A DNA stretch of 33,585 bases from a virus. Its lineage: Duplodnaviria; Heunggongvirae; Uroviricota; Caudoviricetes; Peduoviridae. Below the pieces are notes generated by a model that was not told the origin of the DNA, ran no database searches, and saw nothing but the letters and a program-made list of their open reading frames with translations. Location of the stretch: the IMG/VR virus record IMGVR_UViG_3300029650_000190; one strand, written 5' to 3'. Below are positions 6,552 to 33,585 of this stretch, piece by piece. The position numbers were made by a program, and so were the translations under genes. Position 1 is the stretch's first letter, and each line of letters opens with the position of its first letter.

Positions 6552-7742
6552 TTAATTGCTGTTAACCGAGGTGACCAGACTTGCCAGGTATCTTGAAGTA
6601 ATACGCTGGCGCAGGGTCAGGTTTTCGAGAGGAGGCACCGGTGTATAGTCGTAGTCGATATACAGTTTTCCGGCCTTGAGGGTTTCCGCATCGTTGGCTT
6701 CTTCACTGAACCAGCATGTGCCATCCACGATATAACCGTTGTTTTTCAGTTCGCGGAATTTGGCATTGATGCCATCAATGATGTCGCGAATCAGCGTTGC
6801 GGTGATGGGCTTATCAATAGCCCACATGTGCGCCTCAGCCATCGTGTCGGCCAGTACCTGCGCGGTACGTGTGTAGCTTTCAAAGAGGAAAAGTGGGTCA
6901 TCGGAGCAGGTACGGTTACCCCAGAAACGGAAACCGTCGCGGCGAACCAGCGTTGTGACGCCTGCCTCGTTCAGCAGGTCAGCATCAGTGCCAGACTTCT
7001 GCAAATCCCAGAATACAGATGCGCTGATGCCGGTAACACCGTTTACCCCGACGTTGGACAGCGTTTTATGCCAGCCCTGCTCCTGGTCGATTTTGGCACG
7101 CAGCCCCAGCGCACGGGCGGTGGCATACGCGGTGGCGGTGGTACTGGTGACCGTATCCCATGCAAGGAAATCCGGCCAGATGACCATCAGCTCACGCTGA
7201 CTGAAATTCTGACGGTAGGCTTTTGCCTCGGAAATGGTTTTACAGCCCCATGCGCTGATATACCCGAAGGCATTCAGTTCCTGGCATACCGATGCCAGTG
7301 CAACCGCCACCTCTTTGGTGTCCAGTCCCGGTACGCCGAGAATGCGCGGTTTAACGCCGGTAACCGACTCTGCGCCCATCAGGGCTTTCAGTCCGGTGTA
7401 CTGACCGTTTTCGTCAGTGGTGCCGATGATATTGGAAACGGTCTGCGCGAGTTTCGTTTCTTCGTCGTCGCCGGTGCCGTCTTCCACGCGCACGACAACG
7501 GTGACCGGTTTTGACTGGTCAGCGATGGCCTGCAACGATGCCGCCAGCGTGCCTTTTTTACCGGCCTTTGCAATCGCGCTCTGCACATTGGTGATCAGCA
7601 CCGGTTTATTGACGGGGAAGGTTTCCGCATCCGCATCGCTGGCCGTGCAGACCATGCCAACAATGGCGGTGGATACGGTGGAAATGACGCGGGTGCCGTC
7701 GTTAATCTCCAGCACCTGCACGCCGTGATGATAGTCACTCAT
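6552..7742 (-). CDS. FI: Contractile tail sheath protein FI
   Basis: 396-aa ORF MSDYHHGVQVLEINDGTRVISTVSTAIVGMV...; P2 gpFI-like. Confidence 0.92.
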   Translation of the reverse strand: MSDYHHGVQVLEINDGTRVISTVSTAIVGMVCTASDADAETFPVNKPVLITNVQSAIAKAGKKGTLAASLQAIADQSKPVTVVVRVEDGTGDDEETKLAQTVSNIIGTTDENGQYTGLKALMGAESVTGVKPRILGVPGLDTKEVAVALASVCQELNAFGYISAWGCKTISEAKAYRQNFSQRELMVIWPDFLAWDTVTSTTATAYATARALGLRAKIDQEQGWHKTLSNVGVNGVTGISASVFWDLQKSGTDADLLNEAGVTTLVRRDGFRFWGNRTCSDDPLFLFESYTRTAQVLADTMAEAHMWAIDKPITATLIRDIIDGINAKFRELKNNGYIVDGTCWFSEEANDAETLKAGKLYIDYDYTPVPPLENLTLRQRITSRYLASLVTSVNSN

Positions 7743-7830
7743 CCGTTTAACTCCGTGGTTAATGGGTGCAACTATTTTCTGTTGTGCAGAGCATGAGACG
7801 CTATTTGACCTAGCTGGTCAGTGGATGAAA

Positions 7831-7861
7831 CAACAAACAAAGAAAAGGCGGGTAATCCGCC
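7831..7861 (-). terminator. Candidate intrinsic terminator (ggcgg/ccgcc stem, T-rich tail on the minus strand) between the cargo island and FI
   Basis: Plus 7847..7861 ggcgggtaatccgcc preceded by caacaaacaaagaaaa (7831..7846); on minus this is a stem followed by UUUUCUUUGUUUGUUG. Confidence 0.45.
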
Positions 7862-8527
7862 AGCCTGTCATGATTTGCACTCACTCCTTTTCCAACTGAC
7901 AATTTACATAGCCCAAACGCTATCAAATCTGACAGTCTGCTTTGAGGGAGTAGCGGACGTTGCTGTAGCCCTCCTCACCAAACTTTTAGGTTGCTTGTAC
8001 AGTTTTTGATTTGGTTGACTTCAGAAAATTTCTCGCAAGAAACAAATATAAGTGATCTAGAGGAACATCTATTGATTAACTGTAATTATAAATCTTAGAG
8101 TGACAAGTCATTCCAGAGACATCTAAACTAAAGAAAGATGTAATCTTCCTAATCATTAAGGGGGCTCTTTAATAAAGGTGTAAACCGCGAGGTTCATAGC
8201 AAGCCTATAGCTTTTGGTTCTAAGCCTAACGATGATACCCAGCAAGAGAAAATCATATCGGCACAGATTATTGGAAGAGCAGTGATTGTTACAACCAGAT
8301 TATCAAAGCGATACCACTACCTATAGATGAATAAATGCTATTTACATACTATCATGATGCAGACATCCGCAGTACCGATATGTCCGAGGTAAGGGTGCTC
8401 GGAAATCAAGATAATTTATTCTTATGTTAATAATTATGTTTGTGGATAATATTTAGATTGCCAACCATTTATGACTGGCAATCTAATGTTAATTAGGAAT
8501 AATCCGTTATTCATCAAGTCGCTTTAA

Positions 8528-25363: not shown

Positions 25364-27571
25364 ATGAAATTAAAACTCAAAAACGTAACAAGCTATCACA
25401 AAGAATATTTTACTGAGTTAGATTTGTCCAAAAAAATAAACATATTGTATGGACAAAATGGTTGTGGAAAATCTACCATATCAAATTATTTTTACAATCC
25501 TAAAGACACCGCCTATAAGGAATGTGTATGCGAACCCATCGATAATTATCGAACTCTAGTCTACAACTCAAAATATATAGAAGATAATTTTTATAATGCA
25601 AAAGAGCAAAAAGGTATATTTACCCTCAGTCAAAAAAATGCAGAAATTGAAAAAATACTATCTGAAAAAGAAGAGCTAAACAAATCACTAGCACATCAGC
25701 ATAAAGAAAAAAAAGAATTTATCGAAAAACTCCATGAAGCGAAAAACAAAAAAGAGCAAGAGTGCATAAATTCCATATGGAATAAGACCAAAGACATAAG
25801 AAGCTCAGAATTGAAACAATTAATGAAAGGTCAAATAGGAAGCAAAGCCACTTTCTATTACCATCTAAAAAAGTATACTCCACAAACTGATATTGATATA
25901 AAATCATTAATACAATCTTATAGCAAACTTCTCGAGTTTAAAGGAAAAGAAATACCTCTGATAACTCCTTATAAGGGATATATTTTATCTGAAGAAACTC
26001 AAAAAACATTATCCACACCAATTATTGACTCTAGCAACAGCTATTTATCTGAAGCAATAAAAGAGCTACAAAATATTGATTGGATTAAACAAGGCAAAGA
26101 GCAATATTTAAATGGAGAAATTTGTCCATTTTGCCAAAGGGACACAATAGATGATAATTTTATTAAAGCCATTGAATCTATCTTTGATGAAACATACTCA
26201 AGAAAAGTAGATCAAATACAACAAATAAAACTATCTTATGATAATGCCATTAAAAATCATCATGAAGAAATAAAGAGTAACATTTTATCATGTGAGGTGA
26301 TAAACCAAGACGAAAAAGATAAAAGCCTTTCATATGTTAAGGCATTAGAAACTATTGCAGAAAAAAACATTAAATTATTGGATAATAAAATAGAAAATCC
26401 ATCTATAAGCATTGTGCTGGAATTTGAAAAGTCGATAGAGGAAAAACTATTAGAAGATATAGAACAATACAACAATAAAATTAACGAGTTCAATGACAAA
26501 GTAAAAAGATTTAATAATAGCGAAATAGATATTCGCGAAAAGATGTGGGCAGCAATCAGAGACTTATGTAGCGCGGAATTTGAAATACTATCAGACTGCG
26601 AAAGAAACTTTCAAGAAAAATATGAAAACGCTGCATCCTTCATGCAGGAAATAAAAAGAAAAGAAGAGATCAACACAAATGAAATCAATGAACTAAGAAA
26701 TAAAACATCAAGTGTAGATGCAACAATAGATGCAATAAACTCACGACTTAAATTTCTTGGCATCTCTGGTTTTAGCATTGATAAACACGCCGAACTCAAA
26801 GATAAGTATATAATATCCCGCGATGGAAACAATAGAAAACAAGATGTATATCGGTCATTAAGCGAAGGTGAAAAAACATTAATAACGTTTCTATATTTTT
26901 TAGAATGTTGCAAGGGTAAAACAAATGAAAATGATACTGATATGCGTGATAAACTCATAGTTATAGATGATCCTATATCAAGTCTATCTCAAAACTATGT
27001 TTTCGACATAGCATCCATGATCCATCATGACATAATTGAAAAAGGCATTTCATCAAAAATAATAATCCTCACCCATAATCTTTATTTCTTCCATGAGTTA
27101 ATAAAACTCGCCTCTAAAAAAGGAATAAACTTTAAACGGGACTACTTTCTTGGCAGAATAAACAAAAATGAATTTAGCACCATTAGTGCTATAGATAAAA
27201 AAAGTGTGCAAAATGAATACCAATCCCTTTGGCAAGTATTAAAAGATGCAAAAGAGAAAAAAATCAACAAAATAATAATCCCAAATATTATGAGAAATAT
27301 ACTTGAGTATTACTTTGCATTTGTTCATAGAACTGACGCATTAGAGGCAAAGCTTACTGAATTAACAAATGATGAAAATAACAGCCATTTCCGTGCCTTT
27401 TACAGATATATAAACAGAGGCTCTCACTCCGACGCAATAAATATAACAGATATGGGCGATATTGAACCTGAGAAATACTTAGAACTCTTGCACAAAATAT
27501 TCAGAATGACAGGTGATGAGAAACATTACTTAACAATGATGGGTGAAGAAGAGGTAAATGTTACCGCTTAG
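25364..27571 (+). CDS. Cargo gene at the cos/A (tin-old) variable locus: 735-aa split ABC-type ATPase with long inserted region carrying a CxxC motif and a C-terminal putative nuclease domain; RloC/PrrC-like (AAA_13-type) candidate anti-phage abortive-infection protein
   Basis: Walker A GQNGCGKST (aa 30-38, nt 25451..25477); CPFC (aa 254-257, nt 26123..26134); signature-like LSEGEK (about aa 498-503); Walker B DKLIVIDD (aa 529-536, from nt 26948); H-loop IILTHN (about aa 565-570); C-terminal domain with RNILE (R-x3-E) and downstream His residues; strongly AT-rich relative to the phage backbone; opposite orientation to A, like P2 old. Confidence 0.8.
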   Translation: MKLKLKNVTSYHKEYFTELDLSKKINILYGQNGCGKSTISNYFYNPKDTAYKECVCEPIDNYRTLVYNSKYIEDNFYNAKEQKGIFTLSQKNAEIEKILSEKEELNKSLAHQHKEKKEFIEKLHEAKNKKEQECINSIWNKTKDIRSSELKQLMKGQIGSKATFYYHLKKYTPQTDIDIKSLIQSYSKLLEFKGKEIPLITPYKGYILSEETQKTLSTPIIDSSNSYLSEAIKELQNIDWIKQGKEQYLNGEICPFCQRDTIDDNFIKAIESIFDETYSRKVDQIQQIKLSYDNAIKNHHEEIKSNILSCEVINQDEKDKSLSYVKALETIAEKNIKLLDNKIENPSISIVLEFEKSIEEKLLEDIEQYNNKINEFNDKVKRFNNSEIDIREKMWAAIRDLCSAEFEILSDCERNFQEKYENAASFMQEIKRKEEINTNEINELRNKTSSVDATIDAINSRLKFLGISGFSIDKHAELKDKYIISRDGNNRKQDVYRSLSEGEKTLITFLYFLECCKGKTNENDTDMRDKLIVIDDPISSLSQNYVFDIASMIHHDIIEKGISSKIIILTHNLYFFHELIKLASKKGINFKRDYFLGRINKNEFSTISAIDKKSVQNEYQSLWQVLKDAKEKKINKIIIPNIMRNILEYYFAFVHRTDALEAKLTELTNDENNSHFRAFYRYINRGSHSDAINITDMGDIEPEKYLELLHKIFRMTGDEKHYLTMMGEEEVNVTA

Positions 27572-27798
27572 GCCGCATATTACCGATTCGGGTAAGAACG
27601 ACGGTGCTTACGCACCGTCTCCCAGCGCCCAAAGCGGTAGCGGTTGTACTGTCGTACATTCACTAACCTTAACATGAGATTATCTCCATGCCGGCACCAT
27701 TGTTGCCAATGGCAGCCTTTATACCCTTTGTATAAAGCTAATACTAAGAGCATTGCTAGGTAGATTTCCCAAGCGGTAACGTGGGTATTCTAAGACAA

Positions 27799-30087
27799 TT
27801 ACTTAAAAAGATCAAAGCCACTAAAAAACTGCTTCCACTCACCACTTATTGGATATATAAACTTTCGTCCGTCAAACTTTACCGTCGCGCCACGCGCCAG
27901 CGCCTCAAGCTCCCATCGCAGCGGCCTAATACCGTTCTGAGCAAGGTCAACGCGGATACGGGTAATTTGCATTCTTTCCGACCGGGTCAGCCTAGCGGAT
28001 GGCGCTATTTCATGTGGTTTTAACGGGCTTCCGTTTCTTTGCTGACGATTTGGTCTTCTCAGGCCGTGTTTTAATGCCCCCCTGAGCACCCTCACGACCT
28101 CCGGATCATTCCATTCAATAACACCGTCATCTACCAGATTAAGCACTGCTGCGGCGTGTTCAGAAGGCGTGGGAGCCGGTGACGAAGTATCACCACCGGT
28201 GAGCTTTCCACAGTTATTGACAGGACTCCGAGGCGCGGCGATGCCGCTTTTTAAAGTCAAAGGCTCAACGACCGGCACTTTCGGAACAATGCGCCAGTCC
28301 GTCGTTCTGGTGATATGAATATGACGCGCGCCGAGATGCGGCGCGTAAATGCCGACCACTCTCTCGACTTCTTCCTCGTACTCGTTAACTTCATCCGACG
28401 GACTACGGGCGACCCTGACAGTCTGACAATCGCGTGGGACATTTGCCCCGCCCTGCGCGCTGATATACAACGCAAAATCACCACTGTCTGCGGCGGCGCG
28501 TGCAGCTTCGACGCGTTCGTCAAACTCATCAGCAATGCTGACGCCGCGAGGCAATTTGCGTAGTTCACGGTAAGCCCCCATTGTCGGCAGACCAACCGTT
28601 TTAAATTGCGGGATACGCCACGTTGACGCCCATGCGGTAACAGCCGCTGCAGTGTCTTTCAGCGGTCTGCCGGTATCGTTATCGAGCTGCCCATCCAGTG
28701 CATAGCCGTCGATATTTTTTGAGATGTATTTCGCGATATACCCCGCAGCACCGCCCCGATTAAGATGTTTTGCCTGAAAACGGTTTCGCGCAGCTCCTCT
28801 TTCGTCGCCATCCTCTTTGAGCGCGTAGCGACGCATGATTTCGATAATCTGGTTACGCTGGCGTGGATTACAAAAAAGCATCATATGCCAGTGCGGCGTT
28901 CCGTCGTGGTGTGGCTCGACGACTCGCAAACCGTAGACCTGTAAATCATTATCCTTGAATGCCGTGCGCATCAGGCTCCAGATACGGCAGAGATAACGCT
29001 GCGCATCCTTTGGATTAAATGCCTCATCGTTCCAGCCGTGATTTAGCTGGACGGTTTTACTTTCGCCTTTTCCAACCTGACGTGTCGGGTGATACTTTGA
29101 CGGCGCGGTCAGCGTGATAAACATCCCCACATCACCTTCTGCGGCGGCGTAACGCTCAATACCGGCAATGGTGTTCATCAGCTCCATCCGGCGAATTTCA
29201 GGATTAGAAATACTGCCCATCACCTTACTGATAAGGTCGATGCGCTCGCCTGTTTCCCTGTTTTCGAGATCACACGATTTAAGAAATTCCAGATTTGCCT
29301 GGCGGCGTGCACGCACATCACGAATGGCATGTTTACTGGCATAAGGAGAACGGTCTTTATTGACCTCCCCGACAGCAATCAGTAACGCCTCATGCCAGCG
29401 CATACGCTGGCCTTTAAGCTGACTAATCCACCACTCATCGTTAAACAGACGGGCAATGGCAGAATATGCCTGCCTCGTGGTCATCTGTCCTTTACGGTAT
29501 TTTTTCCAGTAGAGAGGGGAAATATTGAAAGCACGTGCAGCGCCAGCAACATGACCATAGAGGTGAGCCTGCGCCTCATCCGTAAACAGCGATTCTTTTT
29601 CGCCATGCGCATCCACCCAGGCATCGCTGAGTTCCTCATACATCATGAAAAGCTGCGATGAGATACGGGCGGCAAACTTTTTCAGCTCCTTGTCATTCAT
29701 TCCCGGCAGGCGCGCATAGTGGTCACGCTCAGCCAGAAACAGCATCGACGCGTCGGTGTTCATTTCATGGCGCTGATTCACACGCTCAATGCGCGGCCAT
29801 AAACGACGCTGAAAAGTGGATGTGAGGAAATAAAACCCGTGCACCGGGCTTTTATTGCGCCGGATGTAGTCATAGCGTGACGTAAACAGCGAGCGCAAAA
29901 AGTAAGGCAGGCGGTTAATCGTGGATAAAACACCTTGCACCTGACGCATCTCGTCACGTGTAAGGGGTCTTTCGCGCCCGACAGCCTCGCGTGGCGCGTT
30001 CCATGCATAAGCACCGGTAAACGCCTTACCGGTGCCTGCAGCAAATGCTGACGGAGGGACAAAACGCCCGGAGGCTTTAACGGCCAT
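27799..30087 (-). CDS. A: Replication initiation protein A (rolling-circle nickase)
   Basis: 762-aa product from MAVKASGRFVPPSAFAAGTGKAFTGAYAWNAPREAVGRERPLTRDEMRQ... (internal Met of ORF 27799..30129); matches P2 gpA. Confidence 0.92.
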   Translation of the reverse strand: MAVKASGRFVPPSAFAAGTGKAFTGAYAWNAPREAVGRERPLTRDEMRQVQGVLSTINRLPYFLRSLFTSRYDYIRRNKSPVHGFYFLTSTFQRRLWPRIERVNQRHEMNTDASMLFLAERDHYARLPGMNDKELKKFAARISSQLFMMYEELSDAWVDAHGEKESLFTDEAQAHLYGHVAGAARAFNISPLYWKKYRKGQMTTRQAYSAIARLFNDEWWISQLKGQRMRWHEALLIAVGEVNKDRSPYASKHAIRDVRARRQANLEFLKSCDLENRETGERIDLISKVMGSISNPEIRRMELMNTIAGIERYAAAEGDVGMFITLTAPSKYHPTRQVGKGESKTVQLNHGWNDEAFNPKDAQRYLCRIWSLMRTAFKDNDLQVYGLRVVEPHHDGTPHWHMMLFCNPRQRNQIIEIMRRYALKEDGDERGAARNRFQAKHLNRGGAAGYIAKYISKNIDGYALDGQLDNDTGRPLKDTAAAVTAWASTWRIPQFKTVGLPTMGAYRELRKLPRGVSIADEFDERVEAARAAADSGDFALYISAQGGANVPRDCQTVRVARSPSDEVNEYEEEVERVVGIYAPHLGARHIHITRTTDWRIVPKVPVVEPLTLKSGIAAPRSPVNNCGKLTGGDTSSPAPTPSEHAAAVLNLVDDGVIEWNDPEVVRVLRGALKHGLRRPNRQQRNGSPLKPHEIAPSARLTRSERMQITRIRVDLAQNGIRPLRWELEALARGATVKFDGRKFIYPISGEWKQFFSGFDLFK

Positions 30088-30352
30088 ATGAGCCAAAAGC
30101 CTCTGAACAACGCTTGCTGAGTTGCTCAACCTGCGCGTTTAAATCAGCAAAAGACTTTGCGCTTCCGGTCAGAATATCGTGATGCATCAGGCCGGAAACG
30201 AGCTGGCTTAATTTCGGGTAATAACCAACCACCGCCAGCCATTCCTGACCGGCGTTTTTACCGCTTTCCGCTCTCTTTTTCTCGTGGAGAATAAACTGGA
30301 AGCTGTCACTGGTAACGACATAACGTTCGCCAATTTCAATACGAATACTCAT
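30077..30352 (-). CDS. Early-operon hypothetical protein (P2 Orf83-like)
   Basis: 91-aa ORF immediately upstream of A, overlapping the A start; position as in P2. Confidence 0.7.
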   Translation of the reverse strand: MSIRIEIGERYVVTSDSFQFILHEKKRAESGKNAGQEWLAVVGYYPKLSQLVSGLMHHDILTGSAKSFADLNAQVEQLSKRCSEAFGSYGR

Positions 30353-32535: not shown

Positions 32536-32604
32536 CTCTATATAAAGATTACATTTTCACCATTTGCTACCAAGATGGTGAATACAGCGCCGGAGGGCTT
32601 TCTT

Positions 32605-33585
32605 ATGGCAATTAAGAAGCTCGATGATGGTCGCTATGAAGTGGACATTAGACCTCGCGGTCGCGACGGAAAACGCATCCGCAGGAAATTCGAAAGAAAA
32701 GCTGAAGCACTAGCATTTGAGCGATACACAATCGCCAATGCCAGTCAGAAAGAATGGGGAGGCCAGCGAGCAGACCGCCGGACTTTGAGTGAGTTGCTGG
32801 ACATCTGGTGGAAATATCACGGGCAAAACCACGAGCATGGAACAAAAGAGTTTAATCATCTACTCAAAACCATCAGCGGCATAGGTGATATACCAGTGAG
32901 CAGGATGAGCAAAAGGGCTTTGATGGATTATCGTTCCATGCGACTACGTGATGGTATCAGTGCCGCAACGATAAACCGTGACATGTACAGATTATCCGGC
33001 ATGTTCACAAAATTAATTCAATTGGATGAATTTTCCGGGCAACACCCAATTCACGGACTGCCGCCACTGGCGGAGGCCAACCCTGAAATGACGTTCCTGG
33101 AAAAAGCAGAAATCGAAAAACTGTTAAATGTTTTGGCTGGTGATGACTTACTTGTCGCGCTTTTATGTCTGAGCACTGGAGGAAGATGGACGGAAGTTGC
33201 CACGCTAAAACCAGCACAGATTACAAATTGCAGGGTTACCTTCCTGAAAACCAAAAACGGTAAAAAGCGAACCGTGCCGATTTCTGAGGAACTGGAGAAA
33301 AAAGTTAAAGAGGAGGCCAGCGCCAAATTATTCAAAGTTGATTATGAGAAATTTTGCGGGATTTTACGCAGAGTGAAACCTGATATACCACCCAATCAGG
33401 CAACCCACATCCTGCGGCATACATTCGCAAGCCATTTCATGATGAATGGGGGCAATATAATCGCACTGCAACAGATTCTGGGACATGCGAGCATTCAGCA
33501 GACGATGGCCTATGCGCACCTTGCGCCTGACTATCTGCAAAATGCCGTCGCTCTGAATCCACTAAAAGGCGGAGTGACGTTATAA
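32605..33585 (+). CDS. int: Tyrosine-type site-specific integrase
   Basis: 326-aa product from MAIKKLDDGRYEVDIRPRG...; C-terminal catalytic region with ...HILRHTFASHFMMNGGNIIALQQILGHASIQQTMAYAHL (H-x-x-R and catalytic Tyr); GGAGGG RBS before ATG 32605 (alternative ATG at 32575); stop is the last codon of the window. Confidence 0.85.
   Translation: MAIKKLDDGRYEVDIRPRGRDGKRIRRKFERKAEALAFERYTIANASQKEWGGQRADRRTLSELLDIWWKYHGQNHEHGTKEFNHLLKTISGIGDIPVSRMSKRALMDYRSMRLRDGISAATINRDMYRLSGMFTKLIQLDEFSGQHPIHGLPPLAEANPEMTFLEKAEIEKLLNVLAGDDLLVALLCLSTGGRWTEVATLKPAQITNCRVTFLKTKNGKKRTVPISEELEKKVKEEASAKLFKVDYEKFCGILRRVKPDIPPNQATHILRHTFASHFMMNGGNIIALQQILGHASIQQTMAYAHLAPDYLQNAVALNPLKGGVTL

Follow-up and report, generated by a model that had tools for sequence, protein, structure and literature searches.

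The DNA analysed here (33,585 nucleotides (nt), hereafter the window) is IMG/VR virus record IMGVR_UViG_3300029650_000190, a complete P2-like prophage whose orientation is reversed with respect to the standard P2 map. We focused on one gene of its plus strand, at 25364..27571, called here the RloC-like gene: an ATG-start open reading frame (ORF) of 735 amino acids (aa) that encodes an ABC-ATPase head with a helical insert, followed by a C-terminal predicted anticodon nuclease (ACNase) domain. The ORF is the sole gene in the gap that runs from cos and the portal gene Q to the replication gene A. Its upstream neighbour is Q (23854-24888, Phage_portal match). Between the two, on the minus strand at 25058-25076, lies an exact 19-nt match to the cohesive-end sequence that we take to be P2 cos and that bounds the hotspot; this match occurred in none of 100 shuffles. 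Downstream, gene A (27799-30129, minus strand, Phage_GPA 2e-123) is convergent with the RloC-like gene. The terminase was located at 22052-23854 and the integrase at 32575-33585. A first interpretation made from the letters alone (the sequence-only reading) had put the gene exactly in this slot between cos and A, convergent with A, and had described it as AT-rich cargo. Both statements were borne out, the GC content of the gene being 0.30 (0.26 at third codon positions, GC3) versus 0.52 for the remaining window. When the bases of the gene were shuffled 500 times, the stop-free run reached a maximum of 131 codons (mean 66), compared with 735 codons in the actual frame.

The 735-aa frame and every motif that the sequence-only reading had listed in it were present at the residues it had named. 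Conservation was assessed in an alignment of 32 homologues with a lowest identity of 25%, in which a residue is called invariant when it is the same throughout, and in 107 full-length representatives of the family clustered at 50% identity. On the plus strand, the Walker A motif or P-loop GQNGCGKST (aa 30-38, including K36; 25451..25477) showed invariant G30, N32, G33, G35, K36 and T38. The ABC signature LSEGE (aa 499-503; 26858..26872) was invariant from S500 to E503, and the form LSxGE was found in 107/107 representatives. Walker B, LIVIDD (aa 531-536; 26954..26971), carried invariant D535 and D536 and was followed by a D-loop-like PISSLS, and the H-loop or switch IILTHN (aa 567-572; 27062..27079) carried an invariant H571. 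Overall, the core ABC-ATPase motifs were kept in 94 to 107 of the 107 full-length representatives.

The two ATPase lobes are separated by a helical, coiled-coil-like insert, delimited on the secondary structure of an AlphaFold2 (AF2) model at aa 90-446 (about 357 aa; 25631..26701, plus strand). The sequence-only reading had been right that the head is split by such an insertion and wrong about its size, since the 460 aa it gave separate Walker A from the signature. Within the insert, conservation picked out a block at aa 226-279 (26039..26200, plus strand) centred on CPFCQ (aa 254-258, nt 26123-26137), with I232, W240, G244, C254, P255, F256, C257, Q258 and F274 invariant, and CP[FLYW]C was present in 106/107 full-length representatives. 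This block is a candidate zinc hook or dimerisation module. Mean identity among enterobacterial homologues was 0.70 in the N-lobe (1-89), 0.70 in the C-lobe (447-584), 0.70 in the C-terminal domain (585-725) and 0.69 in the block 226-279, and fell to 0.29-0.45, the lowest values of the protein, in the helical arms and intervening regions. Such a pattern is that expected of a coiled coil holding a functional module mid-way.

The AF2 model of the full protein (mean predicted local distance difference test score, pLDDT, 81.6) began with an N-lobe (aa 1-89), continued with a helix of 52 residues (90-141), short helices (143-248) and the CPFC loop (249-263), and ended, after four long helices (276-309, 315-344, 356-401 and 403-446), in the C-lobe and a small C-terminal domain. 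Its best structural matches in the PDB (E 5e-7 to 1e-4) were the coiled-coil-bearing heads of Rad50 and of SMC, cohesin and condensin, and Lamassu LmuB, retron ATPases and AriA appeared at lower rank. The placement of CPFC, read from the secondary structure of the model, was 14 residues off the insert midpoint, with unequal helices on either side. Because the helices flanking CPFC are unequal, a simple two-helix hairpin tipped by the Cys pair was not evident from the predicted secondary structure. Of the coiled coil with an apical CxxC that had been anticipated, the model supports a Rad50/SMC-like head and long helices, and its secondary structure does not suggest the simple hairpin.

The C-terminal region, aa 585-735 (27116..27568, plus strand), is predicted to be an ACNase domain of the PrrC/RloC-type HEPN class, as judged from the PADLOC PrrC match over aa 434-716 and from a profile of the domain itself. 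The motif R644-N-I-L-E648 (27293..27307, plus strand) would supply the catalytic Arg and Glu; N641, R644, I646 and E648 are invariant, and the motif falls on xRKFLE of the RloC clade described below. The predicted catalytic His is H688, preceded by a Ser (S687-H688; 27422..27427, plus strand), both residues being invariant and lying 39 residues past E648. RloC has been defined by ABC-ATPase motifs, a coiled-coil insert with a central CxxC, and a C-proximal Arg-X3-Glu-X36-52-His in which Ser often precedes His, in proteins of 658-897 aa (Davidov & Kaufmann 2008). The arrangement R644-x3-E648-x39-S687-H688 fits that published signature, Arg-X3-Glu-X36-52-(Ser)His, in agreement with the Arg-Glu-His triad proposed in the sequence-only reading, and R-x3-E...[S/G/T]H was found in 103/107 full-length representatives. 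GkaRloC, the Geobacillus kaustophilus protein, depends on each of the homologous residues R692, E696 and H737 for its ACNase activity and its toxicity, and its zinc-hook mutant C291G is hyperactive (Davidov & Kaufmann 2008). A profile built from the last 153 residues and searched against 1.84 billion cluster representatives retrieved 1479 proteins at E <=1e-3, of which 299 reached E <=1e-30. Of its 150 top matches, the full-length ones nearly all measured 720-760 aa and had the domain at their C-terminal end. Matches of about 400 aa were considered as PrrC and rejected, as they were fragments. A separate AF2 model of the C-terminal domain showed a beta-hairpin plus six helices (the HEPN reference is an all-alpha fold).

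Profile searches placed the whole protein in a known family. Pfam AAA_13 matched at 4e-103, aligning aa 16-713 with profile positions 9-712 of 713, and the PADLOC model PDC-S06, sub-model PDLC04886, matched over the full length (3e-254, 844 bits). PHROG 2801 (function unknown) also matched end to end, and NCBIfam held no model for the protein. The PADLOC PrrC model aligned at 5e-16 over aa 434-716, through the C-terminal domain; its alignment reached profile position 340 of 372 in the clade of our protein, compared with 240-283 in canonical proteins named 'wobble nucleotide-excising tRNase'. Because the match extends further into it, the nuclease domain of this clade looks more PrrC-like than that of canonical RloC. 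As the sequence-only reading had held, there was no TOPRIM: neither Pfam nor PADLOC gave a Toprim or Old match, and an Old homologue was rejected. A conjugative-transfer AAA_13 protein was likewise rejected given the phage context. In the PDB, phmmer with the protein returned no match and a profile search matched only Rad50/SMC P-loop regions; neither search found a solved structure of any relative.

A homologue search retrieved 81 proteins, mostly enterobacterial at 40-64% identity. More remote homologues (28-31% identity across 99% of the length) bear the name 'wobble nucleotide-excising tRNase' at the Joint Genome Institute (JGI), and one homologue is a 'DNA repair ATPase' in UniRef. Weak matches of about 800 aa carried CxFC around residue 294 and, close to the C-terminus, 'NNxRKFLE...NE[YL]SH'. 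When the profile of our clade was compared with that of the ~800-aa clade by hhalign, the two aligned with 100% probability and E 3.2e-56 over 713 columns, with CPFC falling on CxFC and MRNILE on xRKFLE. The ~800-aa clade is named 'wobble nucleotide-excising tRNase' (RloC) by NCBI, UniRef and JGI, and its CxxC (~294) and R/E (~690-720) lie near C291, R692 and E696 of GkaRloC. In PADLOC it is also PDC-S06, but under sub-model PDLC04887. Since both clades carry that PADLOC name under different sub-models, PDC-S06 is in effect PADLOC's RloC superfamily, and our protein belongs to a separate sub-clade of it. The profile checks that the sequence-only reading had proposed therefore came out in its favour, with AAA_13 over the full length, the PrrC model through the C-terminal domain and the RloC clade by full-length hhalign.

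On the observed domain make-up, motif conservation, homology to the RloC clade and genomic position, we propose that this protein is probably a member of the RloC family that acts in abortive infection as one self-regulated polypeptide, its gene being cargo of the cos-proximal P2 defence hotspot. The steps that follow are drawn by homology to the RloC proteins of G. kaustophilus and Acinetobacter baylyi. In a lysogen, the Rad50-like ATPase head and the Cys-Pro-Phe-Cys module of the protein would hold its own nuclease silent. A superinfecting phage would generate a DNA-related signal, for example DNA ends or breaks, which, with ATP hydrolysis, would throw the ATPase switch. The switch would release the C-terminal PrrC/RloC-type RNase (HEPN-class, metal-independent), predicted to use R644, E648 and H688. 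At least one host tRNA would then be cut in its anticodon loop by the RNase, possibly with excision of the wobble base, as GkaRloC excises the wobble base of the tRNA anticodon loop. Translation would halt and the infection would be aborted, to the benefit of sister lysogens and of the resident prophage. Work on RloC has described an internal silencing and activating switch that requires no partner gene. Because that switch is self-contained, a RloC-like gene can travel alone as cargo, and a single-gene cargo such as the one found here fits the family.

A number of observations weigh against this proposal or restrict it. The D-loop of the enterobacterial subclade is PISSLS (SSLS, aa 539-542, 26978-26989), with Ser in place of the usual Asp; in the canonical RloC clade and in more distant relatives it reads PISSLD. 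The clade of our protein is only ~21% identical to the canonical RloC clade, so that it may not share the substrate, the cleavage mode or the trigger of canonical RloC. The connection to the characterised proteins GkaRloC, AbaRloC and EcoPrrC runs through annotated orthologues and motif numbering and not through direct alignment. A promoter scan of the 290 bp upstream of the gene, from cos to the start codon, found no promoter-like site; the total count of sites in the scan was at shuffle level. As to published work, 'RloC-like' is absent both from the table of evaluated systems and from the main text of Rousset et al. 2022, a study of this hotspot considered below, and in the literature we found no experimental test of PDC-S06 or of the P2 'RloC-like' clade.

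Some of these points favour a protein of the same architecture with another chemistry or target (mRNA, rRNA or another tRNA site), or one that is triggered by a phage protein instead of DNA ends. The low identity to canonical RloC would agree with it, HEPN RNases vary widely in substrate (Anantharaman et al. 2013), the extent of the PrrC-model match means that the nuclease domain is not simply RloC-like, and P2 Old has been reported to be a tRNase with a trigger logic of its own. However, PrrC and RloC, both studied branches of the family, cut tRNA anticodon loops, and the triad and its spacing are conserved; we judge this departure from the proposal distinctly unlikely. Homology to PrrC also raises the option of a guard in the manner of PrrC, silenced in trans by a type I restriction-modification (R-M) enzyme of the host and freed when an anti-restriction protein of the phage inactivates that enzyme. 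Davidov & Kaufmann 2008 did propose that RloC may interact in trans with R-M systems. Nevertheless, no R-M gene was found in the prophage or adjoining the homologues, the protein contains the coiled-coil/CxxC insert that PrrC lacks, and the internal switch of RloC accounts for transfer without a silencer, which makes a guard of this kind very improbable here.

Rad50 and SMC heads being the best structural matches of the full-length model, Rad50/SMC P-loop regions the only hits of the PDB profile search and 'DNA repair ATPase' the UniRef name of one homologue, the protein could be taken for a Rad50/SMC/RecN-like ATPase of DNA repair or maintenance, devoid of nuclease and serving phage replication or packaging. 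Yet its C-terminal domain, absent from Rad50 and SMC, is as conserved as the ATPase lobes and bears the invariant R/E/SH triad; in addition, no Mre11/SbcD-like partner gene is present and the gene occupies a slot that is variable and accessory, outside core P2. We consider a plain repair ATPase scarcely credible. Finally, the frame might be intact and the cargo functionally dead, a relic, in line with the alleles of other strains that are frameshifted or disrupted by insertion sequences. This copy is intact, though, with every catalytic motif in place, the identical protein represents a cluster of 133 member sequences, and chance does not keep a frame of 735 codons open at 30% GC; a relic, too, seems to us extremely unlikely.

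Having weighed these possibilities, we retain the RloC-type abortive-infection module as the probable identity of the gene. A bolder version of it, which we advance tentatively and regard as doubtful, is that the ~735-aa clade (PDLC04886) forms a branch that lies between PrrC and RloC and differs from both in function, one that combines a PrrC-like nuclease with a CPFCQ sensor or dimerisation device and that acts as an equivalent of Old, reading phage DNA intermediates or ends and destroying a defined set of tRNAs. In such a branch the conserved CPFCQ module, of 55 residues, may be a dedicated sensing or dimerisation device. If this were true, the unrelated TOPRIM and HEPN nucleases would have been recruited to one sensing logic at one locus.

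A RloC-like allele was detectable by blastn in at least 113 of 5426 complete E. coli genomes, and the protein identical to ours is the representative of the 133-member cluster mentioned above. Near-identical E. coli prophages have the RefSeq gene order portal, 'AAA family ATPase', replication endonuclease, and adjoin yegR/yegS at their integration site. The slot between Q and A in other E. coli strains holds further alleles with mutual nucleotide identities of ~69-70%, one of them in an avian pathogenic E. coli (APEC) O1:K1:H7 strain. Several E. coli copies are frameshifted, split in two or disrupted by IS5 (for example in E. coli JNE21-009); this suggests recurrent inactivation, as would be expected of a costly or toxic gene. 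Megablast of the gene against 50,697 phage records gave no match. With tblastn, the phage records yielded a 60%-identical copy in the P2-like Enterobacter phage ENT4 (31 kb) and 26%-identical homologues in Streptococcus prophages that are annotated 'translation-disabling ACNase'.

Beyond the P2 slot, homologues were located in defence islands. One in Peribacillus adjoins Mrr, KwaB and RES genes, and an E. coli homologue of 40% identity is part of an integrase island at smpB/ssrA, with a gene for a Guanylate_cyc + AGS_C protein (a Pycsar-like cyclase) and a cluster of HxsD and two radical-SAM genes upstream. In a marine gammaproteobacterium the homologue is a solitary gene. No R-M system was found beside the homologues examined (the E. 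coli smpB island, Peribacillus, the marine gammaproteobacterium and the E. coli prophages), and the prophage itself contained no R-M genes.

Other features of the window concern the surroundings of the gene. Between the convergent RloC-like and A genes, at 27600-27619 (plus strand), there is a GC-rich hairpin, GACGGTGC-TTAC-GCACCGTC, within a 101-nt stretch (27560-27660) of folding energy -46.8 kcal/mol (z -4.7). No T run follows the hairpin, which is possibly a two-way terminator for both genes. A 57-aa ORF on the minus strand at 27580-27753 matched PHROG 21154 (function unknown). No tRNA genes were found in the window. A second AT-rich island (GC ~0.35) occupies window positions 7750-9900, in the slot equivalent to P2 Z/fun, flanked by the tail sheath gene (6552-7742) and a tail-fibre assembly gene (9931-10458). 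It contains one ORF, at 8528-9565 on the minus strand (345 aa), which matched only PHROG 5157 (function unknown, 1.6e-29), plus UPF0242 weakly, and had no PADLOC match; we regard it as a candidate for a further gene of cargo or defence.

The sequence-only reading had regarded the module as a poorly described type. That claim was overstated, since the family and its occupancy of the P2 slot were already on record. Rousset et al. 2022 analysed the same hotspot in 18,150 loci, and their Table S5B lists 'AAA_13', noted as 'RloC-like', as system #5, the fifth commonest, with 420 occurrences; its representative is 47% identical to our protein over 399 aa. The work of Anantharaman et al. 2013 covered ABC-HEPN proteins of prophages, with APECO1_4465 as prototype, and put forward that they keep out other phages without involvement of R-M. 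PADLOC includes the family as PDC-S06, and a 2025 preprint considers a PDC-S06 AAA-ATPase of E. coli likely to be a genuine defence protein. Our protein resembles PDC-S06, Rousset system #5 and the APECO1_4465-type ABC-HEPN proteins in family and locus; those entries are catalogues or predictions, and the gene studied here is one of several allelic groups. An allele of an APEC O1:K1:H7 strain occupies the same slot. Our protein is thus a divergent further member of a catalogued family, the computational insight is not new, and the value of the annotation is small, given that family and location were known before. If the gene is active, it would constitute a compact single-gene module shielding lysogens by tRNA cleavage. 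The RloC family is widely annotated, while knowledge of it comes almost entirely from two proteins studied outside phage infection, with no natural phage trigger known. The E. coli/P2 allele would provide a tractable host and phage panel for its trigger, its tRNA targets and a comparison with Old.

Among the known systems, Rad50, SbcC and the SMC heads share with our protein a split ABC head with long helical arms and provide its best structural matches. The hook motif of Rad50 is of the CPxC type, like the motif of the insert. Rad50, however, has no C-terminal nuclease domain, and the insert found here is much shorter and comes with no Mre11/SbcD partner gene; a plain SMC/Rad50 repair protein was rejected on the conserved nuclease-type C-terminal domain. 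E. coli PrrC (R320/E324/H356) is alike in having an ABC-type NTPase followed by an ACNase domain with an Arg-Glu-His triad. PrrC proteins, by contrast, are of 341-416 aa without a coiled-coil/CxxC insert and always lie inside a type Ic R-M locus that silences them, whereas our protein has 735 aa with an insert of ~357 aa, and its neighbours are P2 portal and replication genes. PrrC proper was rejected, with no R-M locus at hand and the insert present.

The closest likeness is to RloC (GkaRloC of G. kaustophilus and AbaRloC of A. baylyi; COG4694). Our protein agrees with it in the ABC head split by a CxxC-bearing helical insert, the C-terminal R-x3-E-x36-52-(S)H, the full-length profile homology to the annotated clade, the size (735 aa, within 658-897) and the stand-alone gene without linked R-M, such linkage being rare for RloC. 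It differs in being 60-90 residues shorter, mostly within the insert, in its ~21% identity to the clade, in having its own PADLOC sub-model (PDLC04886, not PDLC04887) and in its carriage by a P2-like prophage. According to a recent report, P2 Old, the classical occupant of the slot, surveys DNA defects and acts as an abortive tRNase. The RloC-like gene resembles it in genomic slot, in being a single-gene module, predicted here to be abortive, and in the fusion of an ABC-ATPase sensor to a nuclease effector, likewise predicted here. The effectors are unrelated, TOPRIM in Old and a predicted PrrC/RloC-type HEPN domain here, and Old has no long CxxC-bearing insert. Because Old is reported to act as an abortive tRNase surveying DNA defects, a functional analogy between the two genes at this locus is plausible.

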